From positions 1 through 44,891 of the IMG/VR virus record IMGVR_UViG_3300028048_000213: a stretch of DNA of 44,891 nucleotides, one strand, 5' to 3'. The position numbers and the translations under genes are program-made. Positions 1 through 44,891 of this stretch are shown one piece after another. The first letter of the stretch is position 1, and each line of letters opens with the position of its first letter. The notes below the pieces were generated by a model that saw only the letters and a program-made list of their open reading frames with translations, was not told the DNA's origin and made no database searches. Source of the DNA: a virus.

Positions 1-59
1 AATGATGAGGCTTATTTGGAGGCTCATATAAGCAGCCTGCTTGGTGAAGAGGTGAAACT

Positions 60-269
60 ATGAAGAATGGACTGCAAAACTTCCTTGCATATTGTTATAT
101 GTGTTATACTGGCAAGGCAAGACTAGATAAAACTCAGAATGATATTCATGACAAGCTAATCCTTGTCGGTTTTGTCTTACTGTTCATACTGGGAATCATT
201 ATTGGATGTGCAATCTGCTTCCTTATCCAGCCACCTTCATATTTCAGTACTGAACTGGCTTTTTTATAG
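60..269 (+). CDS. Small membrane protein (paralog of 36649-36858)
   Basis: Hydrophobic stretch LILVGFVLLFILGIIIGCAICFLI; GGTGA RBS upstream; ORF conserved in copy B. Confidence 0.7.
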   Translation: MKNGLQNFLAYCYMCYTGKARLDKTQNDIHDKLILVGFVLLFILGIIIGCAICFLIQPPSYFSTELAFL

Positions 270-282
270 GGGGACAATATTT

Positions 283-471
283 ATGAGAACTATCAAAAAG
301 GAAGAAAAAGTAGTAACTGATTGGCATGGTGTACTCAAAGAAATCAATAAGATTGGCGTGTTTGGTGCCAAGAAAGTACAAACTATCAGCATCAAGCAAT
401 ACTGGTCAGAACTGCATAATAAACCAGAGTACACACTTATCATCAATACTTTGGAGGAGAGAGATGACTAG
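283..471 (+). CDS. Hypothetical early protein (paralog of 36872-37060)
   Basis: ATG at 283 after a GGGGG RBS; near-identical protein in copy B starts at the equivalent ATG. Confidence 0.7.
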   Translation: MRTIKKEEKVVTDWHGVLKEINKIGVFGAKKVQTISIKQYWSELHNKPEYTLIINTLEERDD

Positions 472-658
472 TATTGGAGAGTTAGCAGACGAACTACTCG
501 AAGCCATTGCATTGGAGGATATGAAATCCTTCCAAAAAAATGGTTTCTACACAACATTCACAAAGGCAGGCGATTGCAAGGTACTCGTATTCGACCTGCC
601 AAACGAACAAACCAAACTCGAACAATTCAACATATGGAGGACCAAAAATGGCAACTAA
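464..658 (+). CDS. Hypothetical early protein (paralog of 37053-37247)
   Basis: ATG overlaps the previous ORF end; protein identical in copy B. Confidence 0.7.
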   Translation: MTSIGELADELLEAIALEDMKSFQKNGFYTTFTKAGDCKVLVFDLPNEQTKLEQFNIWRTKNGN

Positions 659-1022
659 AAAAGAAGAAACCCAAGAAATGGCACCACTCCGATACACCGA
701 TACTGTTTACAACTGCATCGGACTATGGAGACAAAAAGGCATCGATGTTAATATGATGCTGATAAAAGAACTGGAAGGAGCAAAGAAAAACCTAGACGTC
801 TACCGACAGAAAGTCGATATTGACAAAAACACCCTATTGCTTGAAACCAATTGGGACAAAGTCAATGAAGAAAGGAAAGCACAAGGATTAACAAAGATAA
901 GCAATGAGAGTATGAGGAAGGCTTACATTGACAGTCAACTCGTACAAGAAAAAAGAGAACTAAACACTTTAATCGTTGAGTATGAGACATTATTAAGAAT
1001 TTATGATGCAATCAAGGAGTAA
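648..1022 (+). CDS. Helical/coiled-coil early protein (paralog of 37237-37611)
   Basis: GGAGG RBS before ATG 648; synonymous differences between copies indicate coding constraint. Confidence 0.75.
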   Translation: MATKKEETQEMAPLRYTDTVYNCIGLWRQKGIDVNMMLIKELEGAKKNLDVYRQKVDIDKNTLLLETNWDKVNEERKAQGLTKISNESMRKAYIDSQLVQEKRELNTLIVEYETLLRIYDAIKE

Positions 1023-1030
1023 CTGATACT

Positions 1031-1705
1031 ATGGCATTCGAAACAGAAGAAACCACTAATGAAATGGTAGTTGTCGAACAAGTGAACGATCAACCTGCAA
1101 CCTTGCCAGATTATGCAATCCTTAACCCTGAAATACCAATGAGTGCTAAAGTAGGTGTTGCTACCAATGTGGCAAATACATTAGCACCATTAGTAAGGGA
1201 ACAAGGATTAACTGTTAAAGGATTAAACAAGAAAAACAAAGAAGCAGAATATGTAATGGTTGAAGGCTGGGAAGTCCTAGGAACATTCTTAGGTATTGTT
1301 CCAGTTACTACAATCATAGATGAGATTAAAAATAAGCATGGGCATATTGTAGGTTACAAGGCAAGAGCAACATTATACCAAAACCCTATAATCCAAAATG
1401 ATGAGATTATGGGCGGAACTGTCATTGCAAGGGCAGAAGCTCAAGCAGATAAGACAGGTTTTCAAAAGGATATGTTTGCCATTGCAAGTATGGCTCAGAC
1501 TCGTGCTTTAGGTAAGGCTTATCGTATGGGATTATCTTGGATTATGAAGATGGCAGGATTTGAAGGCACATTTGCAGAAGATATGCCTAAATTCAAACCA
1601 GATGATTTTGATGTGATAGAAGCAGAACATGAGGCTAAAGTAGAAAGAGCAAGAAACAAACTGAAAAAAGACACTAAGATTATTGAAATGGAGGCAGAAG
1701 AATGA
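1031..1705 (+). CDS. Putative single-strand annealing protein / recombinase (Rad52/ERF-like)
   Basis: Motif ASMAQTRALGKAYR resembles the conserved helix of phage annealing proteins; homolog at 37960-38781; typical position in a replication module. Confidence 0.55.
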   Translation: MAFETEETTNEMVVVEQVNDQPATLPDYAILNPEIPMSAKVGVATNVANTLAPLVREQGLTVKGLNKKNKEAEYVMVEGWEVLGTFLGIVPVTTIIDEIKNKHGHIVGYKARATLYQNPIIQNDEIMGGTVIARAEAQADKTGFQKDMFAIASMAQTRALGKAYRMGLSWIMKMAGFEGTFAEDMPKFKPDDFDVIEAEHEAKVERARNKLKKDTKIIEMEAEE

Positions 1706-2265
1706 GCAGAGGATTAGAACAATACACTGAGAGAGTAGTAGAACAACCAAGAAAGAAGGAGAAGGAGGCTAAAACCACCTTCTTCCCAAGCCTTGAGGGC
1801 GAAATGGTGGAAGAAAACGACTTCAACGATGAATGGTACGACTACCTGAAAGTAACACTCTCCAACCTAGAAGACGGTGAAACATGGACCGGATTCCCAG
1901 TACTCTCAGATGTCCAGACAGTACAATGGGAAGACAACCCAAAACCACAACACCGCGTAACCTTAACACTAGTGGATGAAGAAATGGAAGAAAGACTCGA
2001 AATCCCGATCACATTAAAAACTGATGGAGACATCCAAAAGAACATCCACCACAAAAGCAAACTTTACGCTTTCCTTGCCAGTATCAAAGACCTTGAAGAA
2101 CCTGGCTGGAGCAAGAAACATAACCGTATAGGTAAAGCAGACCTTGACGAATACCGCAGATTCCTTGACTCCGCAAAGGTCTGCACCATCAAAGCGATCG
2201 AAGTCCCAGCAAGGAAAGACTTCCCAAGTTACATGACTTTTAAAGTGGTTAAAATTCAACTTTAA
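1702..2265 (+). CDS. Hypothetical protein, possible ssDNA-binding protein
   Basis: Beta-rich and acidic, between the annealing protein and helicase; positional counterpart of 37620-37970. Function inferred only. Confidence 0.4.
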   Translation: MSRGLEQYTERVVEQPRKKEKEAKTTFFPSLEGEMVEENDFNDEWYDYLKVTLSNLEDGETWTGFPVLSDVQTVQWEDNPKPQHRVTLTLVDEEMEERLEIPITLKTDGDIQKNIHHKSKLYAFLASIKDLEEPGWSKKHNRIGKADLDEYRRFLDSAKVCTIKAIEVPARKDFPSYMTFKVVKIQL

Positions 2266-2313
2266 CCACTAAAACCCTTTTCTTTTTTTTATAAGAATAA
2301 ATGTTAATCGGAG

Positions 2314-4170
2314 GTGAAAAAGTTGACAGAGATACCAGCACAGGAACTTCCAATATTCCAATACTTCCTATCTGTAGAGCAGAAAGGCAAAACAGATTAC
2401 CGGTACAAACTAATCAAGGATGGCGAGATAATCTACAGGAATAATAGCAAGACAAGGCCTGGGCAACTAAACACTAACAGCAGTTTAGTGAAAGAACTAA
2501 TCAAGGAATTAGAAGGCAATGTCACCATAACCGTGGATGATGTCACCCAAGTAGTTAGCAGACCCAATATTAGTAAAAAACTGATGGCTTGCTTGGAAAA
2601 CATCGAGAATGCTCTTGAACAGTACATCCTTAACAAGAACAGGAACCAGCAAGAGCAGGACTTGAAAGAACAACGGGAGAGATTGGAAAAACTGGAAACA
2701 AGGGCTGGAGACTTCTGCAACTTCATAGAAACAAAGGAAGCCGACATAACCACATTCCTTTATTATGCAGCGGAATGGTTGAGCGGAGGCGAAGCCAGAA
2801 ACACACTCGTAGGAGTAATCTGCCACCTGAGCACTTACTTCCATATCAAACCAATATGGTTCTTCAGTATGGGTAAAGCAGGCGAGGGTAAAAGCGTAAT
2901 AGAAGAATGTGCTCATGAGATAATGCCGCCCGAGGCTTTCCGTAACGGCCGTATAAGCGAATCAGCATTACATCGTAAAACCGAAACCGAAGGCATCGAT
3001 TACCTTGACGGCAAGATAATGCGAATGAAAGACATGGGAGGCAAATCAGATTATGAGAAATGGGCCGACACTTTGGATCGTTACAAGGAATTAACCACAG
3101 AGGGCATAGTTGAAGTTGAGAAAACAAGCGATACTGCTAACCCTGATACTGGCCGCAGGGAAGTTGACTTCTTCCAAGTCCGCGGATATTGTAGTGCCTG
3201 CATAACCAGTGTGGATAGTGAGGGATTAGATGACCAGATACTGTCACGTGGGATAGATGTGACCCCTGAAGCTACAAACGAGCAAGTGCAAAAATTCTTT
3301 AAATATAATCAAGGATTGATTAAAGAAGAAAGGGCTCGCATCATTAATGATGAGATTGGTATGTTTCATGATTATGTGAATTATGTTGAAGCCAGGAGCA
3401 GGGAAGTTGAAATCATCAACCCTTATGACCCTTGCTTGTATGATTGGTTTGAAGAAGCCGAGTATTACAAAAGGGGATTAAGCACTTTCCCGGCACTCGT
3501 GAAAACAGTCACTTTACTCAATTATGATTACCGCCAACGCATAGTACGGGACGGGAAAACCTACCTTATAAGCACCCGAGCGGATAACCAGTTAATCGCT
3601 GACTTATTCAATCCAGGGCATGGAGTGAGCAAGTCTTCCATAAAAGTTTTCAATCATATGACTAACTGGTTCGAACCATATAGGCCTAGCGAAGAAGATT
3701 ATGCAAGCGAGTTTGAACGATACGAAAGAGGAGAGATACCTAACATTAAACAATGCAAGGAAATCTTCAATGTCAGTATCGTGAAGTCCAAAGTCAATAA
3801 AAACAGCAACCTTAAGGGACTCCCGGTAGGGGAAATCATAGGCAGCCTTACCAATCACGGATTCATAGAACCTATTGGAAAGATGCCAAGAGGCAATAAG
3901 AATGTGTATGCTCTTGTCCAAACGGAGCCTATAAAGAGCAACCCGATACTTTTTGAAAGTGCCGTTATTGAGGAGTATGTGGGGGAGCTCTCCCTCATGT
4001 ACGGAGTGCCGTATACCCCCCTCCTGGAAATGGTCAATCATGAAAACACCGAAAACGATGGAGAGCCTTGCAATACCCGATTGGAGCTTCCTCCGTGGAG
4101 TTCGGAAGTGCCGCACAAGTGCCTTAAAGGTGCCAGGAGGTACCACGTAGGTACCGCAAAAACCGGTTAA
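2314..4170 (+). CDS. AAA+ P-loop ATPase, putative replicative helicase (MCM-like divergent); start likely TTG 2323
   Basis: Walker A GKAGEGKS, acidic Walker B region MKDMGG, arginine-finger-like LSRG; GGAGGTGA RBS precedes TTG 2323. Confidence 0.65.
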   Translation: MKKLTEIPAQELPIFQYFLSVEQKGKTDYRYKLIKDGEIIYRNNSKTRPGQLNTNSSLVKELIKELEGNVTITVDDVTQVVSRPNISKKLMACLENIENALEQYILNKNRNQQEQDLKEQRERLEKLETRAGDFCNFIETKEADITTFLYYAAEWLSGGEARNTLVGVICHLSTYFHIKPIWFFSMGKAGEGKSVIEECAHEIMPPEAFRNGRISESALHRKTETEGIDYLDGKIMRMKDMGGKSDYEKWADTLDRYKELTTEGIVEVEKTSDTANPDTGRREVDFFQVRGYCSACITSVDSEGLDDQILSRGIDVTPEATNEQVQKFFKYNQGLIKEERARIINDEIGMFHDYVNYVEARSREVEIINPYDPCLYDWFEEAEYYKRGLSTFPALVKTVTLLNYDYRQRIVRDGKTYLISTRADNQLIADLFNPGHGVSKSSIKVFNHMTNWFEPYRPSEEDYASEFERYERGEIPNIKQCKEIFNVSIVKSKVNKNSNLKGLPVGEIIGSLTNHGFIEPIGKMPRGNKNVYALVQTEPIKSNPILFESAVIEEYVGELSLMYGVPYTPLLEMVNHENTENDGEPCNTRLELPPWSSEVPHKCLKGARRYHVGTAKTG

Positions 4171-4228
4171 AGTACCAAGAAGTACCGCAAAAAATGACAA
4201 AAGTGCCAAGAGGTACCGCAAAAAATGA
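4130..4228 (+). repeat. Iteron-like direct repeats GT(A/G)CCAAGA(A/G)GTACCGCAAAAAATGA; candidate origin A
   Basis: Near-identical 26-mers at 4172-4197 and 4203-4228; partial copies at 4130-4144 and 4149-4162. Confidence 0.75.
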
Positions 4229-4779
4229 TACACAAAATACCATGCATAAAACAATACATCTACGAAACAAATGAAGGAAACAGAAATCAAAACCTATTCA
4301 AAGCACTCAACCATCTAAGAAGGTTCAACAAACACGAACCCACCGACTTGATGGAAGAAGAAGCTGAAAAACTAAACCAATACTTCAAAGAACCATTACC
4401 AACCAATGAAGTCAAAAACATACTCAAACACGTAACCAACCATAACTATAGATCCAACTGCAAATCTTTTGAACCTTATTGTCAAAGATGCAGGTATGGT
4501 GATATGAAGGAGCGTTACAATGAGATTAACCCAAGATACCATTGGCACATAAAAGAGGATAATACATTGTATGGGTTCCCTGGTTTGCCTGATGGAACCT
4601 ATTATCCATGGGATTTTGAGAACACTCAAGATTTGGATTATACGGCTAAAAGGCTGGTGATGGAGTTGAGAGAAGCGAAGGGGATAAGTCCCTTGATAGA
4701 CCAGGAGATAATTGCGAATGGGATACCAGTAGGAGACGAAGCCCTAAACGAATACTTGGAATACTTAAAAGGAGAGTAA
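4225..4779 (+). CDS. Primase C-terminal (PriCT-1-like) domain protein with Cys cluster
   Basis: EGNRNQNLF...LNQYFKEPLPTNEV matches the PriCT-1 pattern; followed by CxxxxxYCxxC. Confidence 0.6.
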   Translation: MIHKIPCIKQYIYETNEGNRNQNLFKALNHLRRFNKHEPTDLMEEEAEKLNQYFKEPLPTNEVKNILKHVTNHNYRSNCKSFEPYCQRCRYGDMKERYNEINPRYHWHIKEDNTLYGFPGLPDGTYYPWDFENTQDLDYTAKRLVMELREAKGISPLIDQEIIANGIPVGDEALNEYLEYLKGE

Positions 4780-4784
4780 TCAGC

Positions 4785-4928
4785 ATGAACGAAGAACAAT
4801 GTGAAAGATTAGTGAAAGCATTTGAAAAAATAGCAGAATGGTTCGAACTTAACCCATTATCTGATGTTGCAGGTGCTATTGAGGAGATAAGCAACTCTAT
4901 TGATGAGATGAATGACAAGGAGGAGTAA
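4785..4928 (+). CDS. Small acidic hypothetical protein (47 aa)
   Basis: ORF MNEEQCERLVKAF...DKEE with a GGAG RBS; fills the gap between genes; not in the ORF track. Confidence 0.55.
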   Translation: MNEEQCERLVKAFEKIAEWFELNPLSDVAGAIEEISNSIDEMNDKEE

Positions 4929-4972
4929 CGGATGATACATAGTGAAACTGTAAAGCACATTGGAGATAAGAA

Positions 4973-5686
4973 ATGATGGAGATACTGATTGATGCACGGG
5001 AGCAGGGGGAGAAATACTCCCTCGGAACCCGCAAAGACAGAGCCCAAAAACATTACAATGAACTAGGCTACCCCGCAATTATAGCACAACTAGACTACGG
5101 GGACTACCTATTCAATAATGAAACCATCTTCGAGTACAAGACAATCGCAGACCTGATGAGCAGCATAAGGGACAAATCAGTATTCGAAGAAGTGGCAAAC
5201 CAAACCAAACACTACCCTTACAGTTTCCTAATAATCGTAGGAGACATAAACCATTATATTAAGTATATGTTCGACATTCCAAAGATTTACAATCACTGGG
5301 ACGGGGATTATGCTGCATGGAGAGCCAACTGCTACAAACGATATTATGGTGGACTCAGGAGATTAAGATGCTACTCCAATATCATACATTCAATGAGCGA
5401 AACACAAGCTTTTGATGAGATGCTGTTGCAGGCGATCAAGTGCAGCCATCCAAAATATTATGGTGGAACTAAACGACCTGTTAAGGGTACGGATATTATT
5501 ATCCATATGTTGTGTGGGTCTGGTAATGTGTCCCTTAAAAAGGCAGAGAGGATTAAGGAAACCTTAAGATTAGGGAGTCCGAGTGATTTGCTTGAGGCTA
5601 CCATTAAGGATTTTGAACAAGTGAAAGGAATAGGGCATAAGACTGCAACTAATCTATATGAATGGCTTCATAATGTGGAGGTTTGA
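4973..5686 (+). CDS. ERCC4/XPF-family structure-specific nuclease with HhH motif (probable resolvase)
   Basis: IDAREQ...GDY...EYKTIADLMSSI nuclease motifs; C-terminal VKGIGHKTA helix-hairpin-helix. Confidence 0.85.
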   Translation: MMEILIDAREQGEKYSLGTRKDRAQKHYNELGYPAIIAQLDYGDYLFNNETIFEYKTIADLMSSIRDKSVFEEVANQTKHYPYSFLIIVGDINHYIKYMFDIPKIYNHWDGDYAAWRANCYKRYYGGLRRLRCYSNIIHSMSETQAFDEMLLQAIKCSHPKYYGGTKRPVKGTDIIIHMLCGSGNVSLKKAERIKETLRLGSPSDLLEATIKDFEQVKGIGHKTATNLYEWLHNVEV

Positions 5687-5928
5687 TAATATTTTGTGAG
5701 AGTAGTGAGGATTTTAACAGCAGAGAATATAAGGGGTACAAGCCCTACACAATGCCAGAACGGGGCTATGATTGGAAGGATTATGTAAGATTGAATGATG
5801 CCGAGGATAAAGTAGTGAGTTGTCATATGTGCGACATCCGAAAAACCGGTTGCATAAGCAAAGCTACACCAAGGTATTATTGTAAACGGGATAAGCGATC
5901 AATACAAACAAGTTTAGGAGATTTTTAA
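5683..5928 (+). CDS. Small Cys-rich protein with C-terminal PIP-box-like motif (paralog of 42210-42455)
   Basis: TTG start after GGAGG; CHMC...C...C cluster; ends QTSLGDF. Confidence 0.7.
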   Translation: MIIFCESSEDFNSREYKGYKPYTMPERGYDWKDYVRLNDAEDKVVSCHMCDIRKTGCISKATPRYYCKRDKRSIQTSLGDF

Positions 5929-5929
5929 C

Positions 5930-6655
5930 ATGAATAATTTTGAAAAGATTTTTGAAAAGCTAGCACGTACCCATGACCCTATGAATCTCTTTAGTGAGTT
6001 TTTAGATTATTGCATTGACATAAATCTTCTCACTCTTAAAAGCCAAGGATTAGATTTCAAAGGAAGAGAAAAACAGTACATGGAAATGTTCAAGGAATGG
6101 ATACTAATCACTAATGAAACCCTAGAGAAAGAGGATTCCATAGGTTGGTATGATTACCTTGGAGAGTTTTACGAAGCGGTAATCCAATCCAAATTCAAGG
6201 CTGGAAGTATGGGTCAGTTTTTCACACCATCTAACGTTTGCGAAGCTACGGCTGAGATGACTATGATGGGAAAGCCAAGTGATGGCATGATTAATGATTG
6301 TTGTTGTGGAAGTGGAAGATTATTACTTGCAGGGCATAATCATGATCCAAATGCCATAGTAATAGGTCAGGATTTGGATAGTGTTAGTGTTAAGATGGCA
6401 GCTTTGAATTTTTATATTCATGGTGTACGTGGTAGTGTTTTGCATATGAACAGTATTACCAATGAGTTTTTCGGTGGCTATAAGGTTAACCAGTATCTTG
6501 GGTATGGGTTGCCTTTACCTCATATAGAACTGTTGCATTCATATGAAGATGCTTTCCATTTCTTTGGTGAAGGTTTCAATAAGAGTATTGAAGAGGAACA
6601 GATAGTTGAATTGCATCCTTCAGGTAAGGAAACAGTACAAACAACATTAATCTAA
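5930..6655 (+). CDS. Short HsdM-like (N6-adenine methyltransferase fold) protein lacking the NPPY/F catalytic motif
   Basis: GQFFTP, DCCCGSGRLL (SAM motif I), GQDLD; no [ND]PP[YF]; ends QTTLI. Confidence 0.75.
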   Translation: MNNFEKIFEKLARTHDPMNLFSEFLDYCIDINLLTLKSQGLDFKGREKQYMEMFKEWILITNETLEKEDSIGWYDYLGEFYEAVIQSKFKAGSMGQFFTPSNVCEATAEMTMMGKPSDGMINDCCCGSGRLLLAGHNHDPNAIVIGQDLDSVSVKMAALNFYIHGVRGSVLHMNSITNEFFGGYKVNQYLGYGLPLPHIELLHSYEDAFHFFGEGFNKSIEEEQIVELHPSGKETVQTTLI

Positions 6656-6671
6656 GGTGGGCGGAGTTTGT

Positions 6672-7097
6672 ATGTATGATACATTATTAGATTACAATAA
6701 CAACATGGGATATGTTCCACCATTAGATGTTCCCGAATCCAAAGCAGAACTCATTTATCGTGTTACAGAAAAAATGAGCAAATACTGTAATCAGAAACAA
6801 TTAAGCGAATTAAACAAGGTTCTGATTCATGAATTAGAAAAAGTGGACATCATAACCCAAGAAAAACCTATTTTAGAAGATGCGAAAAGAGAGAATGAAA
6901 GATTATTGAATGATTTTATTGATGCTAAAAAACTGGAAGGCCGAAGCATAAACACTTTAGTCTATTACAAATCCACACTTGAGAAATTTTTAGAAACCCT
7001 TAACAAACCAGTTACCGATGTAAGAGCTCAGGAATTAAGACCATACCTGCTTAATTATGGAGAAACTGTTAGTAAAGTCACATTAGATAATGTCCGA
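6672..7097 (+). repeat. Direct repeat copy A3 (homologous to 44466-44891)
   Basis: 426 bp with 4 substitutions by manual alignment; the last 127 bp (6971-7097 / 44765-44891) are identical. Confidence 0.95.
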
Positions 7098-7727
7098 AGG
7101 ATTTTCAGCAGCTTCTTTGCTTGGCTACTTGAAGAGGAATATATCTTCCGAAACCCTATGAATAAGATCCATAGAGTAAAACAGCCAAAGACAATTAAGA
7201 AACCATTTACCGAGTATGAGATTGAACAGTTAAGGTTAGCTTGCACTAACCTGCGTGATAGAGCAGTGCTTGAACTATTATTAAGTACTGGAATAAGAAT
7301 AACCGAACTAATCCAATTGAAAAAGGATGATGTCGATTTCCATGACAGGAGCATAATCGTATGGGGTAAAGGTGCAAAACAAAGAGAAGTATATTTCGGA
7401 GAACAAGCCGAACTTCATCTCCAAATGTATCTTGATTCAAGAACTGATAATGACCCTCATTTATTCCTAGCCCTCATAGGAGGGAAACCTCTTCAAAGTA
7501 ACAGCAGTCTTATATCAATGTTCAAGGGATTAAGTGAACGTTCAGGAGTTCCTAAAGTTCATGCTCACAGATTCCGCAGAACCATGGCCACATGGGCAGT
7601 CAATCATGGAATGCCTATAGAACAAATCAGCCAATTATTAGGGCATGCCAGTTTGGAAACTACTCAGATTTATGCAATAGTGGACCAGTCCCAACTCAAA
7701 TATGCTCATAAGAAATATATAAGATGA
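6672..7727 (+). CDS. XerD-like tyrosine recombinase
   Basis: RDRAVLELLLSTGIRITEL (R), GKGAK (K), HAHRFRRT (HxxR), LLGH and TQIY (H, Y); N-terminal SAM-like domain. Confidence 0.93.
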   Translation: MYDTLLDYNNNMGYVPPLDVPESKAELIYRVTEKMSKYCNQKQLSELNKVLIHELEKVDIITQEKPILEDAKRENERLLNDFIDAKKLEGRSINTLVYYKSTLEKFLETLNKPVTDVRAQELRPYLLNYGETVSKVTLDNVRRIFSSFFAWLLEEEYIFRNPMNKIHRVKQPKTIKKPFTEYEIEQLRLACTNLRDRAVLELLLSTGIRITELIQLKKDDVDFHDRSIIVWGKGAKQREVYFGEQAELHLQMYLDSRTDNDPHLFLALIGGKPLQSNSSLISMFKGLSERSGVPKVHAHRFRRTMATWAVNHGMPIEQISQLLGHASLETTQIYAIVDQSQLKYAHKKYIR

Positions 7728-7746
7728 TACTGGAAGGAATGCTAGG

Positions 7747-8163
7747 ATGAAAGGGGTTCCAAATACAAAATACATAGGGTATCGTAAAAACACGGGGAAT
7801 TATTACATCCAAAAAAGAGTAAAAGATAAGATATTCCTCTTTGGAACTTATGAAACTCTTGAAGATGCAATATTCTGGAGAGATTACCATGTTAAACATG
7901 GATGGAACCTGAATGAAAGATTGATGGGATCTAAAACAAAATTCATAGAAGAATACGCTGACGGAAAATACATTATTAAAAAAGTGACAAATGGGAAAAA
8001 GAAGACTTTCGGAGTATTCACAGATTATTATGAAGCTCTTCGAGAAGTTATGCTTTTGAAGAAATGCGGTTGGGATTGGGAGGCAATCTGCGAATCAATA
8101 GATGAAACTATTGATGGCAAAATAATAATGAGAAATAGGATTGTGGAGGAGTTAAATTTATGA
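7747..8163 (+). CDS. Tandem AP2-like DNA-binding domain protein
   Basis: Two repeats of Y-x-I-x-K...FG(T/V)(Y/F)...(D/E)A...GW. Confidence 0.6.
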   Translation: MKGVPNTKYIGYRKNTGNYYIQKRVKDKIFLFGTYETLEDAIFWRDYHVKHGWNLNERLMGSKTKFIEEYADGKYIIKKVTNGKKKTFGVFTDYYEALREVMLLKKCGWDWEAICESIDETIDGKIIMRNRIVEELNL

Positions 8164-10996: not shown

Positions 10997-11020
10997 AACT
11001 AACCCTAATCCTTTTTGACT

Positions 11021-36099: not shown

Positions 36100-36176
36100 A
36101 TGAAGACCAACATTAAATCAAGCAAGACTTAAATTCTTGACTTAAAAATTTTTGCACAATAGGAATTTTGGTAACT

Positions 36177-36652: not shown

Positions 36653-36858
36653 TTAATGGATTGCAGAACTTCCTTGCATATTGTTATATGTGTTATACTG
36701 GCAAGGCAAGACTAGACCGTGTACAAACTGATATCCACAGGACACTTGTCCTGGTTGGTTTTGTAACACTCCTTGTTCTTGCATTTCTGGGACTTGTAGC
36801 ACTTTGCTTCCTTATCAAGCCACCGGAATATTATAGCACACCTTTGGCTTTTTTATAG
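36649..36858 (+). CDS. Small membrane protein (paralog of 60-269)
   Basis: Same length; hydrophobic helix conserved. Confidence 0.7.
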   Translation: MINGLQNFLAYCYMCYTGKARLDRVQTDIHRTLVLVGFVTLLVLAFLGLVALCFLIKPPEYYSTPLAFL

Positions 36859-36871
36859 GAGGATTTAGTTT

Positions 36872-37060
36872 ATGAGAGTTATTAAGAAAGAAGAAAAAAT
36901 CATTACAGACTGGCACGGAGTCCTGAAAGAAATAAACAAAATAGGGGTCTTCGGAGCCAAGAAAGTACAAACCATCAGCATCAAGCAATACTGGTCAGAA
37001 CTGCATAATAAACCAGAGTATACCTTAATCATCAATACTTTGGAGGAGCATGATGACTAG
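36872..37060 (+). CDS. Hypothetical early protein (paralog of 283-471)
   Basis: Near-identical protein. Confidence 0.7.
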   Translation: MRVIKKEEKIITDWHGVLKEINKIGVFGAKKVQTISIKQYWSELHNKPEYTLIINTLEEHDD

Positions 37061-37247
37061 TATTGGAGAGTTAGCAGACGAATTACTCGAAGCCATTGCA
37101 TTGGAGGATATGAAATCCTTCCAAAAAAATGGTTTCTACACAACATTCACAAAGGCAGGCGATTGCAAAGTACTCGTATTCGACCTGCCCAATGAACAAA
37201 CCAAACTCGAACAATTCAACATATGGAGGACCAAGAATGGCAACTAA
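37053..37247 (+). CDS. Hypothetical early protein (paralog of 464-658)
   Basis: Identical protein. Confidence 0.7.
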   Translation: MTSIGELADELLEAIALEDMKSFQKNGFYTTFTKAGDCKVLVFDLPNEQTKLEQFNIWRTKNGN

Positions 37248-37611
37248 ACAAGAAGAAACCCAAGAAATGAAACCATTACGATACACCGACACCGTTTACA
37301 ACTGCATCGGACTATGGAGACAAAAAGGCATCGACGTCAACATGATGCTAATCAAAGAACTAGAAGGAGCAAAGAAAAACCTGGACGTCTACCGACAGAA
37401 AGTCGACATCGACAAAAACACCCTATTGCTTGAAACCAATTGGGACAAGGTGAACGAAGAAAGGAAAGCACAAGGATTAACAAAAATATCAAATGAGAGT
37501 ATGAGAAAGGCTTACATTGACAGTCAGCTCGTACAAGAAAAAAGAGAACTAAACACACTCATAGTAGAGTATGAAACACTATTAAGAATTTATGATGCAA
37601 TCAAGGAGTAA
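37237..37611 (+). CDS. Helical early protein (paralog of 648-1022)
   Basis: Near-identical protein. Confidence 0.75.
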   Translation: MATKQEETQEMKPLRYTDTVYNCIGLWRQKGIDVNMMLIKELEGAKKNLDVYRQKVDIDKNTLLLETNWDKVNEERKAQGLTKISNESMRKAYIDSQLVQEKRELNTLIVEYETLLRIYDAIKE

Positions 37612-37619
37612 CTGATACT

Positions 37620-37970
37620 ATGGCATTCGAAACAATCACACCAGGAATAGACGAAACAAGCAGATACTGGGAACCACTAACAGTTGGAGACCAAATAGAA
37701 GGAAACGTAATCGATTTTGTAGAAGACAACTACGGCAATACTCGTATCCTACTTGAATTGGAGAGCGGATTCGAAAAAGAACTACCATCTCACAGGGACC
37801 TGCAAAGATACAACAGGAAAGTAGACATCGGCGACTACATCAGAGTAACCCTTGCGAAGATAATACCATCTAACAATGAAAACTACGCCGACAAAAGAGT
37901 ATACAAAGTCGAAAAAGACCCAAGCAGAAGAGTAGAATACGAAGAAGAGGAGGCAGAATATGACTACTAA
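37620..37970 (+). CDS. Putative OB-fold ssDNA-binding protein
   Basis: YWEPLTVGDQIEGNV...VDIGDYIRVT...YKV OB-like pattern; acidic C-terminal tail EEEEAEYDY. Confidence 0.55.
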   Translation: MAFETITPGIDETSRYWEPLTVGDQIEGNVIDFVEDNYGNTRILLELESGFEKELPSHRDLQRYNRKVDIGDYIRVTLAKIIPSNNENYADKRVYKVEKDPSRRVEYEEEEAEYDY

Positions 37971-38781
37971 AAACGAAATCATAGAGGCGGAGGCAAAAAC
38001 CTCCTCCCTCGACCTAATCAAAGACGAAAACAAACTCAAAACCGAAAACCATAACGCCCTAGCAGTAGTACACGAAGTATTACACAACAAGGAGAAACCC
38101 GTTATAGTAAACGGGAAACGCCATCTTGAATTCGAAGACTGGATCGCACTAGGCAATGCATTCGGAATAGCCGTAAGAACCGGTGAAGCGGAACCAGTCG
38201 AGATATTCGAGGCCAAGGGATTCAAAGCAAGAGCTGAAGTAGTGAGAGTATCCGATGGCATAATCATTGGTGGAGCCGAAGCTTACTGCTTGAACAATGA
38301 AAGAAACTGGAGAAACAAGGATTACTTCCAAATGGCTAGCATGGCGCAAACTCGTGCTGGTTCGAAGGCCCTTTCCAACCAGTTAAGAGGATTCGTAAGC
38401 CTTGACAAAAACTTGAATGGCACACCATCCGAAGAAATGGTAGGGATAAACAATGAGAAAAAAGGTCAAGTTAGGCGTAGGAAGAAGGCTCCGGCACAAC
38501 CGAAAAAAGAAAAAGAAGCTGAAGAAGCCGAAGTCATCGAAGCCGAAATAGTTGAAGAAAAACCAAAATCCGATAACCCAGCACTCGTACTCAAAGGAAC
38601 CGACAATGTGGTACTCGGCGAATGGTTTAGGAAGATTATCCAAAAACTCGAAAGACGCGGAGACGAACTCAACAAGAAAAACTTCACCCGCATCAGTAAG
38701 ATATGGGCATTCGACAACCAATACCCTGACTTCAATGAGGACATTTGTAAAAACTTACTTGAACACGTGGAAGAAGCATAA
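37960..38781 (+). CDS. Putative single-strand annealing protein (homolog of 1031-1705)
   Basis: Shared W..LG...GI, KARA and ASMAQTRA motifs. Confidence 0.55.
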   Translation: MTTKNEIIEAEAKTSSLDLIKDENKLKTENHNALAVVHEVLHNKEKPVIVNGKRHLEFEDWIALGNAFGIAVRTGEAEPVEIFEAKGFKARAEVVRVSDGIIIGGAEAYCLNNERNWRNKDYFQMASMAQTRAGSKALSNQLRGFVSLDKNLNGTPSEEMVGINNEKKGQVRRRKKAPAQPKKEKEAEEAEVIEAEIVEEKPKSDNPALVLKGTDNVVLGEWFRKIIQKLERRGDELNKKNFTRISKIWAFDNQYPDFNEDICKNLLEHVEEA

Positions 38782-38844
38782 AAACCCCTATCTTCCACCA
38801 CTTTTTTTTATCACCCAAACAAATACGGGAGGTGAAAAACCACA

Positions 38845-40881
38845 ATGACAGCACAAGTCAAAACAATACAAAGCCTAACCCAAACACTAACCGAAATCAA
38901 ACCAGAACTCACAGACACACTACTCAGACAAATCATAAGCGAAATGTTCACACAAGAAGTAGATCCAGAAACCTGTGAAGACATCATAAGGCCATTATGT
39001 GAAAACCTTGTCAACAATCCTGATTTTGAAACCATGTTTGACTGGGCCGACATAAACACATACCTAAATAATATCTACTCCTTAGAGGATAAGCCTAATA
39101 CTGGATTAGATGGTGTTAGTTTTTTATTATCAAGGAATTATGATGAGGCTGAAACCACAATGTTCAATCGTCGGTTGAAAAAGGCTTTGGCTCCGTATGG
39201 TACTAAAAAGGTTTACAGGGAGAAAACCGGAACCAACACCAGTATCATACTTAATCAGAAACTGGAGATAATCCAGTATGAATGGGATAATGGTAAGAAA
39301 GGCGAAAGGAACCTTGAAACTGTGATTAATGCTTACCCTCAGGAAGTTATAATCCATGACAGTCCGCTCGATGATATTGGCAGGACATTCACTATACGAT
39401 GGGTGAGTAAAACCAGTAGCAGAGTATTCGAGACCAATCGTAAAACCATCAAGGAAATCGAACAATACCTTGAAGAAGCCGGATGGGTAATAACACCAAG
39501 ACGATTAAAAGGAACACTCGCCGCGGTGATACAAATAAGTGTAAAGTACAAACTCGCCCAAATGCATAACGAGATTGACAATCCTGGAGTGTACTGGGAT
39601 AAAACCAATGAAGAATTGAAAATCATCCACCTTGATGTAGATGAGCCAAGCCAAGATGAAGTAAATGAGGCCCTTAATGTCATAGATTTACTTGCTCCCT
39701 TCTTTAAAGGACATGAAACCAAACTAAGCACCTGTTTAAAATGGGGATTAATGAGTATATTTGATTACAGTATCAAACAGATTGGTGGTAAATGGATGCC
39801 TTGGCTATACTTGTATGGTAAGGCTGGAAGTGGTAAGACCACCCTTGGCGAAATCATACTATTCATCTATGATATCCCAAACGAGGATAACAACCTAGGA
39901 GGCTCATCCTTTGATACAGTAGCAAGAGTCGGAAGCAGAGTAAGCCAATTCACCAAACCAATAATGGTAAGCGAACCAGAAGGAGCACTCAACAAGCCTT
40001 CAATCGTTGGAATGCTCAAAACCGCGATAGAATCCACAACAGCTCGTGGAAGATACCAAGGCAAAGCCTACAGGACAATACCAAGCTTCAGCTGTGGAAT
40101 AATAACCGCAAACCAAGGACTGCCCTCCGGTGATGCATTATTCAGAAGATTCACCAGCATCCTATTCAGCCACAACGAAAAAAAGGCCGCAGATAACAAG
40201 AAAGAATTTGATGAAATCTTCAAAATAAACAGTCCCAAAAGGAGCATACTAAACAAACTCAAAGCACTCGGAAATTATTTCATAACCGAAATAAAAAACA
40301 ATCCCGAATTATTACTCAACGATTGGCAAGAAACAGCAGACCTACTAGTAGGAAGAGCATACCTAGACACCGGCCACGATATGCCAAGTTGGATACTGGA
40401 CTGGCACAAAACCGAAACACTCGACGATCTAGATGAAGAAGAAATCGAAGAAATCAGATTATTCCTGATAGAGAAAATCAACCGAGCCACACAGAAAGTC
40501 CAAGTATGGAGTGAAGAAACCGGCAGACCATTAAACCAACAAGACCTTGACACGGATTTCAAAACCAATGATGATTTCAATGATAGAGTATGGAGTGTGT
40601 TGAATGAGAAGCTGATTCCTTGGCTTGACCTTCACCGTGGCCGTGATGGAACTATTAATGTAGTTTGCAGTAGCGGTATCAAGAAGGAACTTAAACAGAT
40701 TACTAGCAGCAGCTATAACTTGCAATCCATTAGCGAATTGTTAGGCTGGGAATACAAGCCAATATTGATTAATGGTAAAACTAAGAGGATGATGATTGTT
40801 AATTATCATGATTTCTTGGATTTCCTGTATCCTAAACTTGACGAGTATGATGGCGAAGGCAACTTTGAGGTGATAAGGTAA
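38845..40881 (+). CDS. AAA+/SF3-like putative replicative helicase (DUF927/Cch-like)
   Basis: Walker A GKAGSGKT, Walker B IMVSE, motif C IITAN, arginine finger RRF; GGAGGTGA RBS. Confidence 0.7.
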   Translation: MTAQVKTIQSLTQTLTEIKPELTDTLLRQIISEMFTQEVDPETCEDIIRPLCENLVNNPDFETMFDWADINTYLNNIYSLEDKPNTGLDGVSFLLSRNYDEAETTMFNRRLKKALAPYGTKKVYREKTGTNTSIILNQKLEIIQYEWDNGKKGERNLETVINAYPQEVIIHDSPLDDIGRTFTIRWVSKTSSRVFETNRKTIKEIEQYLEEAGWVITPRRLKGTLAAVIQISVKYKLAQMHNEIDNPGVYWDKTNEELKIIHLDVDEPSQDEVNEALNVIDLLAPFFKGHETKLSTCLKWGLMSIFDYSIKQIGGKWMPWLYLYGKAGSGKTTLGEIILFIYDIPNEDNNLGGSSFDTVARVGSRVSQFTKPIMVSEPEGALNKPSIVGMLKTAIESTTARGRYQGKAYRTIPSFSCGIITANQGLPSGDALFRRFTSILFSHNEKKAADNKKEFDEIFKINSPKRSILNKLKALGNYFITEIKNNPELLLNDWQETADLLVGRAYLDTGHDMPSWILDWHKTETLDDLDEEEIEEIRLFLIEKINRATQKVQVWSEETGRPLNQQDLDTDFKTNDDFNDRVWSVLNEKLIPWLDLHRGRDGTINVVCSSGIKKELKQITSSSYNLQSISELLGWEYKPILINGKTKRMMIVNYHDFLDFLYPKLDEYDGEGNFEVIR

Positions 40882-40890
40882 AAACACAAG

Positions 40891-41106
40891 ATTACATTTG
40901 AAATTACATTTTGTCTTTGTAATTCCAAAACCTTGGAGAACTCAGTATTTTGTAGTTTTGAGTATTCATAGGATTTATTATAAAATTACAAAATTTTTTC
41001 AATGGGTATTGGTATATTACAGAGCGACCTTTTTTATTGTTTGTAATTTTGTAATAATGTAATTCTAAACAATAAAATAAGCAATGTAATTTTGTAATTT
41101 TGTAAT
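40891..41106. repeat. AT-rich cluster of ATTACA/TGTAAT repeats; candidate origin B
   Basis: ATTACA at 40891, 40903, 40985, 41016; TGTAAT at 40918, 41042, 41050, 41058, 41085, 41093, 41101. Confidence 0.75.
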
Positions 41107-41134
41107 TTCAAAAAAAAATATAAGGAGACAACTT

Positions 41135-41503
41135 ATGTTAACTTGTGAATACGATGAAAGAAACCAATGCACAGGCTGCAAACTAGAAAACAACTGCCTA
41201 CTCAAAATAGGACTAACACCCAGCCTAAAACAAATACAAGACCACATACGAGACCTACTCAAGTTGATAAACATGGCAGAAACAGACCTAAACACAATCG
41301 ACAAAATACAACGATTCATCGACAACGGATTATACGAAAAACAAAGAAACATCTTCGGCGATCCAATAACAAAGGTTAGTGATGTTGCCAATTATCCACC
41401 AAGGGATGAAGTAGCTGAAGAATTGGATGATTTACGGTATGAGCTTAAATTGTACAGGCGTAAGGAATTCGAATTGATTAAAGAAGTGGTGAATAAATTA
41501 TGA
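41135..41503 (+). CDS. Hypothetical protein with N-terminal Cys cluster
   Basis: GGAG RBS; C...CxxC...C. Confidence 0.65.
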   Translation: MLTCEYDERNQCTGCKLENNCLLKIGLTPSLKQIQDHIRDLLKLINMAETDLNTIDKIQRFIDNGLYEKQRNIFGDPITKVSDVANYPPRDEVAEELDDLRYELKLYRRKEFELIKEVVNKL

Positions 41504-42213
41504 AGATAATTGTTGATACTCGTGAGAATGGTCCGCATGGTTTAACATCTACAAGGAAGAGCAGAGCCCAAGACTATTATCAGGGTAAGGGTTACGATTG
41601 CGAAATACGACAACTTGAATTCGGGGATTACTTATTCAATAACCAAGTGGTTTTTGAGTATAAACTAATCGATGACCTGATGAAAAGCATCACTAATGGT
41701 CGTTTATTTGATGAGTGTGTTAACCAAACAGTAACCTACCCTTACAGCTACTTGATTGTTGAAGGAGATTTGCAGGATTATATCTTGGACACTTGGGAAT
41801 CCTATATTGTGAGAAAGCAATACACATATGATTACCAAAAATATATCAAATCCACTTATGCCAGATACGAAGGGGCAATAAGACGGGTGCAGACCATCTG
41901 CCCAGTCATCTATGCAGCATCTGAGAGTGTGGCTTTCCAGGAGATGTTACTTCAGGCTCAGAAATGTTGTGAAAGCCGGTATTATGGTAGTGAGGTTAAG
42001 AATCTTGTTAAATCTGCTTCCGCGGTGGATAGTGTGTTGTGTAGTGTTAAGGGTGTGAGTGATAAGAAGGCAAAACTGATTAAGGAAACCTTAAAGATTA
42101 AAAGGCTACATGATTTAATTAATTGTTCTGTTGAGGATTTTAACAAGGTACGAGGGATAGGTGAAAAAACTTCACTTAACATATATGAGTTTATTCATAA
42201 AAAGGAGGATTGA
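41500..42213 (+). CDS. ERCC4/XPF-family nuclease with HhH motifs (divergent allele of 4973-5686)
   Basis: VDTRE...GDY...EYKLIDDLMKSI; VRGIGEKT; same length (237 aa) as the A allele. Confidence 0.85.
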   Translation: MKIIVDTRENGPHGLTSTRKSRAQDYYQGKGYDCEIRQLEFGDYLFNNQVVFEYKLIDDLMKSITNGRLFDECVNQTVTYPYSYLIVEGDLQDYILDTWESYIVRKQYTYDYQKYIKSTYARYEGAIRRVQTICPVIYAASESVAFQEMLLQAQKCCESRYYGSEVKNLVKSASAVDSVLCSVKGVSDKKAKLIKETLKIKRLHDLINCSVEDFNKVRGIGEKTSLNIYEFIHKKED

Positions 42214-42455
42214 TAATATTTTGTGAAACTAGTGATGATTTCAACAGCAGAGAATATAAGGGGTACAAGCCTTACCAGGAGCCAAGGCGTGGTTATGATT
42301 GGAAGGATTATGTAAGCTTGAATGATGATGGTGATGGTGTGGAGTGTTGTCATATGTGCGACATCCGAAAAACCGGTTGCATAAGCAAGACTACACCACG
42401 CTATTATTGTAAACGGGATAAGCGATCAATACAGACAAGTTTAGGAGATTACTAG
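42210..42455 (+). CDS. Small Cys-rich protein with PIP-box-like end (paralog of 5683-5928)
   Basis: Near-identical protein; ends QTSLGDY. Confidence 0.7.
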   Translation: MIIFCETSDDFNSREYKGYKPYQEPRRGYDWKDYVSLNDDGDGVECCHMCDIRKTGCISKTTPRYYCKRDKRSIQTSLGDY

Positions 42456-42456
42456 A

Positions 42457-42669
42457 ATGTTGGAAGTAGTACAGGAAGAGGATAAAGTGAAATGCAGTAA
42501 GGATTTGAATTATATCAAATTAAGTTTGAGTAATCTACGAGTGGGTCATAGTCAGTTAATGCTTGACCTGCCACTTGATTACCATACGGAAGAGTTTGAT
42601 AATGCGTTTATTGATTTGGTGGATGAGTTGGAGGATTTAGTTAAGGATTACGAGGAGAGAATATTATGA
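42457..42669 (+). CDS. Acidic hypothetical protein
   Basis: Coupled ORF present only in B. Confidence 0.55.
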   Translation: MLEVVQEEDKVKCSKDLNYIKLSLSNLRVGHSQLMLDLPLDYHTEEFDNAFIDLVDELEDLVKDYEERIL

Positions 42670-43619
42670 GTGATGCTAAATTAATTCAAGGAGATTGTTT
42701 AAAGGTTATGCAAGACCTTATCGATGATGGTGTAAAAGTGGATATGGTATTAACTGACCCTCCATATGGTAATGTGAAAGGATTAACTCTTGATGGGTGG
42801 AATGACAATTCTGTTGAATGGGATAATACCTTGCCAACAAAAGAGATGTTTGATTGTTGTGAGAAATTATTAAGAATGAATAGAGTTTGTATACTATTTA
42901 GCCAAGAGCCATACACCAGTTATTTAAGACAATTTAAACCAGAAAACCTCCCTTTTATTTACCCATTATACTGGTTTAAAGACCATTTCGCTAATCCTTT
43001 CAATAGCAAATCCGCACCCGTTTCTTATGTTGAAGATTTGAGTGTTTTTCGTAAAAGATGGGATAGTGATAATAAACACCCATTAAGGATTTATGCCCAA
43101 CAATTATTAAATGAGATGGGAGTTTCATATAAAGATATTGAAAGAAGATTAGGTCATAGGAGAGCCGAACACTTTTTTTATAGGGTGGAAAGTAGCCAAT
43201 TTTCATTATGTACTGAAAACACTTATAATGAATTAATTAGTGTGTTCAATATTGATAAGTTGCCTTGTTTTAAAAGTTATAGTGAACTTGAAGAGATTAA
43301 CTTTAAATTCAAGTCTAAATTCAAGTCTAAATTCAATTTAAAGGGTGATAAAAAATATAAATCAAATGTTTTAGAGTACCCTAAAAGTTATAATCATTAT
43401 CACCCTACTGAAAAACCTGTTCCTTTGTTGAAAGATTTAATATTGACATATTCTGATGTTGGAGATACAGTATTAGACTTTACAATGGGTAGTGGTTCGA
43501 CTGGTGTCGCTTGTATGGAAACCAATCGTAATTTTATTGGCATAGAATTAGAACCGAAATACTACGAAATAGCAGAAAAAAGAATAAGCGAAGCGAAAGC
43601 ACAGAGGAGATTAATATGA
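42666..43619 (+). CDS. Orphan beta-class N6-adenine/N4-cytosine DNA methyltransferase
   Basis: DPPY (motif IV) precedes HPTEKP and VLDFTMGSGSTG (motif I); ends QRRLI. Confidence 0.9.
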   Translation: MSDAKLIQGDCLKVMQDLIDDGVKVDMVLTDPPYGNVKGLTLDGWNDNSVEWDNTLPTKEMFDCCEKLLRMNRVCILFSQEPYTSYLRQFKPENLPFIYPLYWFKDHFANPFNSKSAPVSYVEDLSVFRKRWDSDNKHPLRIYAQQLLNEMGVSYKDIERRLGHRRAEHFFYRVESSQFSLCTENTYNELISVFNIDKLPCFKSYSELEEINFKFKSKFKSKFNLKGDKKYKSNVLEYPKSYNHYHPTEKPVPLLKDLILTYSDVGDTVLDFTMGSGSTGVACMETNRNFIGIELEPKYYEIAEKRISEAKAQRRLI

Positions 43620-43699
43620 GTGAAGCTGATTATTGCATCCTTGGAGAAGGATTTTGCCAATGGTGTAGGTATTGTATAATCAAGTATAAGGAGGAGTAA
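43616..43699 (+). CDS. Cys-rich microprotein (27 aa)
   Basis: ATGA and TAATG coupling at both ends; MSEADYCILGEGFCQWCRYCIIKYKEE. Confidence 0.45.
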   Translation: MSEADYCILGEGFCQWCRYCIIKYKEE

Positions 43700-44451
43700 T
43701 GATGGGAGAAAAAGAATTTGAAAAGGAATTCAACAAGCTCACATACTCTCATGAAGTGAGCATAGTGTTCAATGATTTCCTTGATTACACTATAGACCTG
43801 TTCACTATCAACCCTGACACCAAGCTATTCAATTGCAAGAACTACAAGGATAAAGAGTATGAGTATTTCTATAACATGTTCAGGGAACTTGTCCTTTGGA
43901 CCCGGGATGAATTAGAGCACAGACCCTTCTTTGATGGGCTTGGCACATTCTACGAGGACATTGTACAATCAAAATACAAGGCCGGGACAACTGGACAATT
44001 CTTCACACCCATGGATGTGACAAGATTAATGACCCGGCTTGTGGATGATGAAGAAAACCCTGTGGAAGATGTCAAGTGTGTTTATGATTGTGCCTGTGGA
44101 AGCAGCAGAACCTTATTATCCCACCATACTCAAAGACCTTATGACCTGTGCTTTGGCTGGGATTTGGATAGCACAAGCGTGAAGATGAGTGTTATAAATT
44201 TCCTCCTGCATGGTGTTAAAGGCAGCGTATGCCACATGAACAGTTTGAGCCTTGAGTTTTTCACCGGTTTCAAGGTCAATGAATTTATTGACCTGGGCAG
44301 ACCTTTCACTGTCTATCAATGCAGCAGTTGGAGGGAAAGTCAAGTATTCATAGGGCACAACACCAAGCAGGATGTTGTTACTGTGAAAGAAGAGGAGCGG
44401 CCTGTTGTTGAGAAGGCTATGGACAAAACAAAACAGACCACATTAATCTAG
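43699..44451 (+). CDS. Short HsdM-like protein lacking the NPPY/F motif (divergent allele of 5930-6655)
   Basis: GQFFTP, DCACGS, GWDLD; no motif IV; ends QTTLI. Confidence 0.75.
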   Translation: MMGEKEFEKEFNKLTYSHEVSIVFNDFLDYTIDLFTINPDTKLFNCKNYKDKEYEYFYNMFRELVLWTRDELEHRPFFDGLGTFYEDIVQSKYKAGTTGQFFTPMDVTRLMTRLVDDEENPVEDVKCVYDCACGSSRTLLSHHTQRPYDLCFGWDLDSTSVKMSVINFLLHGVKGSVCHMNSLSLEFFTGFKVNEFIDLGRPFTVYQCSSWRESQVFIGHNTKQDVVTVKEEERPVVEKAMDKTKQTTLI

Positions 44452-44465
44452 TGGGAGGAGTTTGT

Positions 44466-44891
44466 ATGTACGATACATTATTAGATTACAATAACAACAT
44501 GGGATATGTTCCACCATTAGATGTTCCCGAATCCAAAGCAGAAATCATTTATCGGGTTACAGAAAAAATGAGCAAATACTGTAATCAGAAACAATTAAGC
44601 GAATTAAACAAGGTTCTGATTCATGAATTAGAAAAAGTGGACATCATAACCCAAGAAAAACCTATTTTAGAAGATGCGAAAAGAGAGAATGAAAGATTAT
44701 TGAATGATTTTATTGATGCTAAAAAACTGGAAGGCCGAAGCATAAACACTTTAGTCTATTACAGATCCACACTTGAGAAATTTTTAGAAACCCTTAACAA
44801 ACCAGTTACCGATGTAAGAGCTCAGGAATTAAGACCATACCTGCTTAATTATGGAGAAACTGTTAGTAAAGTCACATTAGATAATGTCCGA
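44466..44891 (+). CDS. XerD-like recombinase, 5' part (second copy, truncated by the window end)
   Basis: About 99% identical to 6672-7097. Confidence 0.9.
   Translation, partial: MYDTLLDYNNNMGYVPPLDVPESKAEIIYRVTEKMSKYCNQKQLSELNKVLIHELEKVDIITQEKPILEDAKRENERLLNDFIDAKKLEGRSINTLVYYRSTLEKFLETLNKPVTDVRAQELRPYLLNYGETVSKVTLDNVR

Follow-up and report, generated by a model that had tools for sequence, protein, structure and literature searches.

A probable over-length contig from related methanogen siphoviruses, and alternative helicase modules at one locus

The IMG/VR virus record IMGVR_UViG_3300028048_000213 is 44,891 bp long, and the stretch analysed here, referred to as the window, covers it whole. 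The record is assigned the topology class 'linear' and a CheckV completeness of 100%. It is very probably an over-length metagenomic contig derived from related siphoviruses of methanogens, in which helicase modules have been swapped at one locus. Two versions of an early region, A and B, stand at the two ends of the window, each with its own large ATPase, and these viruses and their relatives carry at least four non-orthologous helicase alleles (A, B, C and D) at the same locus, between a gene for a 160-residue protein and the genes for an ERCC4 nuclease and an 81-residue protein. The window itself, judged from its sequence and that of other assemblies, appears to be an assembler's path through a mixed population, and not a single molecule.

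Anatomy and assembly of the contig

Positions 36590–44891 repeat the early region 1–7097 in register, with spacings of 36,589 and 37,794 nucleotides (nt), as a first-pass annotation of the window had reported. The same annotation described three near-identical blocks bracketing two swapped ones. The sole block that is near-identical is 6630–7097 against 44426–44891 (97.7% nt identity); 1–1045 and 36590–37634 are 87.6% identical and 5536–5923 and 42063–42450 are 80% identical, values which match the typical divergence among related viruses of the group. The window has no exact direct terminal repeat, its ends being 80–98% identical with the genes between replaced, and a linear genome bounded by genuine long terminal repeats is ruled out by this end divergence together with the replaced genes.

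Independent assemblies, namely ENA ERZ27252073 (MEGAHIT, k141) and the Logan contigs of SRR8442993, were found by exact-protein look-ups. The final 127 nt of the window (44765–44891) are exactly those of 6971–7097, and the next base inward, the 128th, is a mismatch. In metaSPAdes the largest k is usually 127, and a contig end lying 127 nt past the last A/B difference is the signature of an assembly graph at k=127. In the MEGAHIT assembly, the B arm is a contig of 7,613 bp (L032), 100% identical to 37084–44696, and the A arm a contig of 6,288 bp (L051), which corresponds to 981–6902 with one mismatch; the two have an exact suffix of 141 nt in common, equal to the k of that assembly. A third contig (L060; 1,412 bp) begins at this common k-mer (6762), is 100% identical to the last 336 nt of B and continues through the integrase gene to 8173. 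Since it joins the end of B to the integrase region, B wraps round into the backbone, and B (7098–44891; 37,794 bp) maps as one contiguous circle and is a coherent genome. Both variants are present in one sample: SRR8442993 alone contains A (L052) and B (L035, equal to 37605–42375), each at 100% identity.

On this reading, in which all segments are given on the + strand, the assembler would have begun in a fragment of the variant A early region (1–6970), which is matched by L056 over 1–710 at 100% and by L051. It would then have run through a shared block with the integrase gene, the packaging and head genes and the greater part of the tail genes (6971–30297), where three MEGAHIT contigs (L060, L053 and L058) match 6762–8173 and 8678–30297 at 99.86–99.9%, and 8174–8677 was not recovered. 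Next it would have followed the variant B branch (30298–44764) round the circular map. This branch comprises a B haplotype with the tail-tip C-terminus, a pseudomurein-binding peptidase, a second integrase-like gene and a switch region (30298–36589; L054 equals 30442–36370 at 100%), followed by the B early region (36590–44764; L032 and L035). Assembly would have halted on re-entry into the shared block at 44765–44891. Both ends of the contig lie inside genes, there is no host flank, and relatives of 36.0 and 36.7 kb carry one cassette per contig.

The first-pass annotation had also derived circles of 36,589 bp for A and 37,794 bp for B, differing by two bracketed blocks within one backbone. 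The B circle is coherent; that of A is sound as arithmetic but a chimera, because the DNA found upstream of A is not that of the window. The MEGAHIT contig L056, 100% identical to 1–710, reaches 1,859 nt further upstream, and there it is only about 73% identical to 34739–36589 (49–83% per 100 nt). The A early region is thus joined to a second integrase and switch region of A's own type, and not to 36589. Another contig (L058) follows a different haplotype from 30298, with 49 mismatches in about 390 nt of the tail-tip gene. The differences between A and B span 13–15 kb, including the tail-tip C-terminus, a lysis gene, the second integrase and the switch region, and are not limited to two blocks.

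For the tail-tip C-terminus (30298–30774, with a transglutaminase-like domain at its end), one sample contains two or more haplotypes that differ by about 12%, and these may represent host-range variation. Over 8678–30297 the sole differences from the MEGAHIT backbone contig are one single-nucleotide polymorphism (SNP) and a patch of about 100 nt in a capsid gene. This patch lies at 18344–18440 in the putative major capsid gene, where two assemblies that agree over the rest of 20 kb differ by 15 mismatches in about 100 nt. Recombination over a short tract could account for it, and so could local hypervariability.

The start of the contig at position 1 is only partly explained, A and B being identical there over 63 nt only. 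This block (1–63 and 36590–36652), with diverged DNA on either side, covers the stop codon of a 75-residue open reading frame (ORF) and the start of a gene for a 69-residue protein, and may be a recombination junction. In a B-like microvariant (L057) the last SNP falls at 36589, a hint that the contig starts either where the graph forks or at a junction made by recombination.

Helicase alleles and candidate origins

Between A and B the 69-residue protein is 70% identical in amino acids (aa), the 160-residue protein 96%, the 81-residue protein 84% and the N-terminus of the integrase 98.6%. Homology stops 15 nt into the first swapped gene, and both versions of this gene start with MAFET. A distant homology (30% over 116 residues) links the putative annealing proteins, which do not occupy the same place in the gene order; the ERCC4 proteins are homologues with 44% identity, the HsdM-like proteins are 40% identical, and there is no similarity between the two large ATPases or between the PriCT protein of A and a 122-residue protein of B. 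Of the gene contents first proposed for this block, the MCM-like and SF3-type ATPases, the PriCT protein, the cysteine protein and the ERCC4 nucleases stand, and the SSB and annealing calls found no significant support. In the second block, one methyltransferase-fold gene in A had been set against four genes in B. The B block indeed has a DPPY methyltransferase and a 70-residue ORF as extra genes, but it holds three ORFs of at least 60 residues, the last of which is a 40%-identical homologue of the only gene in the A block.

The calls of an MCM-like ATPase in A and of an SF3-type (SF3/DUF927-like) ATPase in B are supported, because the predicted folds match MCM and SF3/D5 helicases respectively. 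Helicase A (2314–4170, + strand) was modelled with AlphaFold2 at a predicted local distance difference test score (pLDDT) of 85, and the best Foldseek matches of the model are MCM2-7 subunits, SsoMCM and SCCmec Cch (E 4e-7 to 1e-4), in keeping with an MCM-like AAA+ replicative helicase; the template-modelling score is only about 0.3 because the protein has several domains. Its Walker A motif has the form G-x2-G-x-GK, and G187, G190, G192 and K193 are invariant among 27 homologues. It has no match in Pfam (including the MCM family), PHROG or NCBIfam, a profile search of the PDB was empty, and the sole precomputed label on some of its homologues is PF27228. The model of helicase B (38845–40881, + strand; pLDDT 86) matches Cch, SaPIbov1 Rep, NrS-1, PriRep1, MPXV E5, vaccinia D5 and ASFV PrimPol (E 1.5e-10 to 2e-5), which supports an SF3/D5-like replicative helicase. 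The protein matches Pfam DUF5906 weakly (17.7 bits against a curated cut-off of 27.6), its primase matches are also weak, and a sequence search of the PDB and a search of NCBIfam gave nothing; DUF5906 is matched at E <= 1e-3 by 5 of 32 family members. There are 601 relative clusters in the helicase B family, and in many of them the helicase is fused to an additional N-terminal region of about 400 residues; in one relative (L027) this region is a Prim-Pol domain.

Related contigs from several samples were found with searches for the 160-residue protein and the helicases, and their backbones are 80–90% identical in nucleotides to the window. Helicase B stands at the locus in G003 (36.1 kb) and G001, and helicase A in G004 (36.7 kb) and L018, where the annealing-like gene is present as yet another, third allele. 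In L020 and L026, B-type small and annealing genes and a B-type ERCC4 gene accompany helicase C (29% identical to A) and an HNH gene, while L027 combines A-like genes with a Prim-Pol-helicase, D (29% identical to B), and has no ERCC4 gene in the usual place. The same helicase is thus found beside different annealing, ERCC4, HNH or GmrSD genes. The proposal that related viruses carry alternative helicase modules at the same locus is borne out by alleles A–D, and other genomes do hold alternative cassettes at these junctions; the proposed fixed boundaries do not hold, as genes assort singly, B-type genes occurring with helicase C and A-like genes with helicase D.

The helicase cores have diverged less than the genomes around them. 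The core of helicase B, made up of the helicase gene, a gap of 254 nt and the gene for the 122-residue protein, is 95–99.6% identical in G001 and G003, with flanks at 80–90%, and the core of helicase A is 95–97% identical in relatives. At four-fold degenerate sites identity is 83–94% in helicase cores against 41–81% in backbone genes, and the helicase B protein is 99–100% identical in more than 120 distinct sequences. As synonymous sites have diverged far less in the cores than in the backbones, these comparisons indicate that the cores were recently exchanged horizontally. The locus shows two features of replication-module mosaicism, namely non-homologous alternatives between homologous flanks and a divergence of the module that is discordant with that of the backbone.

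Directly downstream of every helicase (A, B, C and D) lies a short-repeat array of its own, and every helicase is accompanied by a small partner gene. Candidate origin A (4128–4217, + strand) spans the helicase A stop codon and contains three copies of the 17-nt motif AAGTRCCARGARGTACC (0.02 expected), a motif with no copy in the rest of the window. Candidate origin B (40902–41107) is an array of TGTAATT/AATTACA in the AT-rich 254-nt gap; 8 of the 16 exact copies in the window fall within these 206 nt, and the region is 97–98% identical in G001 and G003. Allele C is followed by the repeat TGGCAAAA (L026 4634–4836), with four of five copies there and 0.47 expected overall, and allele D by ATTACCT (L027 6582–6894), with all five copies there. 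We infer that each helicase and its own repeats form a cognate initiator–origin pair.

HNH endonuclease and GmrSD-like genes occur in the recombination/replication region of relatives (L026 5285–6025; L042–L044 at about 8029–8472 and about 12858–13973; L036 3062–4624), and these insertions are possible homing or anti-defence cargo.

Competing explanations

Under the explanation favoured here, an over-length contig from related viruses that exchange helicase modules, the helicase, its small partner gene and the downstream repeats would act as a cognate initiator–origin unit. Such cores would move between diverged backbones by recombination in conserved flanks, either during co-infection or between co-resident proviruses, and the viruses' own annealing proteins and ERCC4 nucleases would perhaps aid the exchange. 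Several points weigh against this account. The two variants are known from assembled contigs, and had the same sample contained another backbone that was diverged, the exact-protein look-ups would have missed it. Haplotypes number more than two: L051 departs from the window at 673–980, L057 carries SNPs, and there are forks at 8174–8677, in the capsid gene and in the region 36518–36589. It follows that the alternative tail-tip haplotype is assigned to A by parsimony, and that its linkage to A is only presumed. The closeness of the helicases at synonymous sites could in part reflect codon or mutational constraint, and the repeat arrays were taken as candidate origins on their position and motif counts.

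A simpler account would hold that the contig joins two siblings of one backbone which differ by two plug-in blocks only, and whose circles would measure 36,589 bp for A and 37,794 bp for B. The repeat spacings are correct for it, both arms run into one and the same integrase region, and 8678–30297 is about 99.9% identical between assemblies. It is nonetheless quite improbable, being contradicted by L056, whose 1.86 kb upstream of A are about 73% identical to 34739–36589, by the second haplotype that begins at 30298, by the 80–88% identity of the blocks between the cassettes, and by the gene-by-gene assortment in relatives. That the contig is a real molecule, whether a heterodimer, a tandem of A and B proviruses or a genome with a diverged partial duplication carrying two replicons, is barely credible. 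A tandem arrangement is compatible with the assembly data, integrases are encoded and one relative lies within an 81.6-kb contig (L043); against these stand contig ends that lie inside genes and lack any host flank, the exact k=127 signature at the 3' end, the splitting of the same DNA into arms at common k-mers by another assembler, and the single cassettes of the 36–37-kb relatives. A length of 44.9 kb would, moreover, be about 20% above unit length for what is probably a headful-type terminase. The helicase alleles might instead be old, vertically inherited polymorphisms held by strong purifying selection, with no recent exchange. The 99–100% amino acid conservation of the helicases does speak for strong selection; four-fold sites and the non-coding repeat region are, however, also far closer than the backbone, and the same helicase stands beside different annealing, ERCC4, HNH or GmrSD genes, which makes this account highly improbable.

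A bolder extension of the exchange explanation, which we regard as rather unlikely, is that the helicase, repeat and partner cores (about 2.6–4 kb) are self-contained replicons sweeping through diverged backbones under selection from host defence or provirus competition, possibly with the help of HNH endonucleases, while alternatives are kept side by side in one rumen population. Co-residence without incompatibility and escape from defences, as suggested in the first-pass annotation, are speculation; differing immunity is an equally plausible reason for the coexistence of A and B, because the switch region also differs between them.

For users of the record, the label of a 100% complete genome of 44.9 kb is misleading, as it covers one genome of 37.8 kb and a 7-kb piece of a sibling virus, and neither a two-cassette genome nor the 36,589-bp circle is fit for use. 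What is documented is a locus at which viruses of rumen methanogens carry one or another of at least four replicative helicases, every one of them accompanied by a candidate origin. These candidate initiator–origin pairs are possible replicons for genetic tools in Methanobrevibacter-type hosts, for which we know of no such tools at present.

Remaining features and known systems

The early genes described here all lie on the + strand. The conserved gene for the 160-residue protein (540–1022; B copy 37129–37611), function unassigned, is the left flank of the variable locus and lies upstream of every cassette allele. In A it is followed by genes for a 224-residue candidate single-strand annealing protein (1031–1705) and a 187-residue protein with no assigned function (1702–2265), which is 95–96% identical in G004 and L018; neither protein has a family match in Pfam, PHROG or NCBIfam, and the earlier 'SSB-like' label of the latter is unconfirmed. 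Further along A are a PriCT-1 domain protein (4225–4779; PF08708, E 7e-7, passing the curated cut-off), the A allele of the ERCC4 and HhH nuclease (4973–5686; Pfam), the N-terminal half of an HsdM-like N6_Mtase without an NPPY-type motif (5930–6655; Pfam) and a tyrosine integrase (6657–7727; Pfam Phage_integrase, E 3e-33), the first 147 codons of which occur again at 44451–44891. The stretch 5930–8700, which holds the HsdM-like gene, the integrase and a gene for a 138-residue protein, has no counterpart in G001, G003, G004 or L018, and similarity resumes at about 8700.

In B, a 273-residue candidate annealing protein (37960–38781) matches PHROG 19042, a family of unknown function; its assignment to Sak/Rad52 was rejected, as atlas scores of 0.89–0.90 are at chance level and a sequence search of the PDB was empty, and so was that of a 116-residue protein to the phi29 SSB (atlas score 0.81, likewise chance level; PDB search empty). 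The SSB and annealing proteins of the first-pass annotation are thus unconfirmed. The 122-residue protein (41135–41503) has an N-terminal cluster of four cysteines and travels with helicase B; 94% of the four-fold sites of its gene are identical in relatives. It is followed by the B allele of the ERCC4 and HhH nuclease (41500–42213; Pfam), by an N6_N4 DNA methyltransferase found in B only (42666–43619), in which a PF01555 match (E 2e-29) and a DPPY motif bear out the predicted DPPY methyltransferase, and by an N6_Mtase N-terminal half (43699–44451; Pfam).

The backbone is that of a siphovirus, with Pfam matches for the large terminase (TerL; 12073–13410), portal, MuF-like protein, XkdF-type protease, tape measure and Dit, and with a tail-tip protein of 1096 residues. 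There are no tRNA genes in the window and nearly all genes are on the + strand. Pfam also identifies a peptidase with a pseudomurein-binding (PMBR) repeat and two tyrosine-recombinase-like genes. Because the peptidase bears this repeat, a host in the Methanobacteriales is pointed to; some homologues of helicase A carry names from Methanobrevibacter arboriphilus, and the names of assembly records suggest a ruminant-gut origin for related contigs. The variants are best explained as temperate siphoviruses, Drs3-like (Anaerodiviridae-like), which would infect a pseudomurein-walled rumen methanogen. Profile scans of genome contigs with the 160-residue protein found nothing, those with helicase A led to short contigs in assorted metagenome-assembled genomes, one of them Methanobacteriota, and neither yielded a provirus–host junction or an att site.

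Among relatives, no backbone gene has diverged further than the second integrase-like gene (34462–35577; weak Pfam matches only), which stands at 68–71% nt identity. A direct repeat of 48 nt, 77% identical, stands at 11012–11059 and 17120–17167, upstream of the packaging and head gene blocks, and could be a common late promoter. For the TerL region of the window, neither DNA nor protein comparison gave a match in G003 (4811–6380) or G004 (34474–36457), which are syntenic elsewhere; TerL is another replaced gene there.

Among deposited viruses the closest is Methanobacterium virus Drs3 (Anaerodiviridae; 37,129 bp), whose portal is 46.6% identical in amino acids. It has a similar genome size and a homologue of helicase B (35% identical), and its early genes follow the order seen here, with an annealing protein (ERF) first, then the helicase, one further gene and ERCC4. 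It is, however, a distant relative from another host genus, it has no match to the MCM-like A allele, and neither putative annealing protein is significantly similar to its ERF protein. A literature search, from which the main compendium of methanogen viruses lay outside, found no paper on this locus.

In structure, helicase B is matched best, or nearly so, by SCCmec Cch and SaPI Rep (PDB 5dgk, 8tch and 7ola), which are self-loading initiator helicases; Cch is also among the matches of helicase A. SaPI Rep–ori pairs are element-specific. These staphylococcal proteins belong to bacterial elements and share 10–15% sequence identity, so that the likeness is one of fold and role only.

Lambdoid and dairy streptococcal phages carry alternative replication modules at a fixed map position, in line with Botstein's modular theory. 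The viruses described here resemble such temperate tailed phages in having non-homologous initiator or helicase alternatives at one position between conserved flanks, with their own origins in the phages and candidate origins here, and in having replication modules whose history differs from that of the structural genes. They differ in their archaeal methanogen hosts, in the alternation of MCM-like with SF3/D5-like helicases, and in an initiator–origin specificity that is here presumptive.

Among the replication genes of small dsDNA viruses, those for replicative helicases occur most often (PMC4889955). In MSTV1-like viruses of Methanobrevibacter, TerL has been non-orthologously replaced by recombination, and endolysins have been too (PMC11375127). 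Gene replacement among gut methanogen viruses is common to both cases, TerL being replaced in G003 and G004 as well; in the MSTV1-like viruses, however, it concerns the terminase and endolysin and no replication helicase, and the MSTV1 portal is only 26% identical. The principle of mosaic replication modules is already well known from bacteriophages, and is met here in archaeal viruses.

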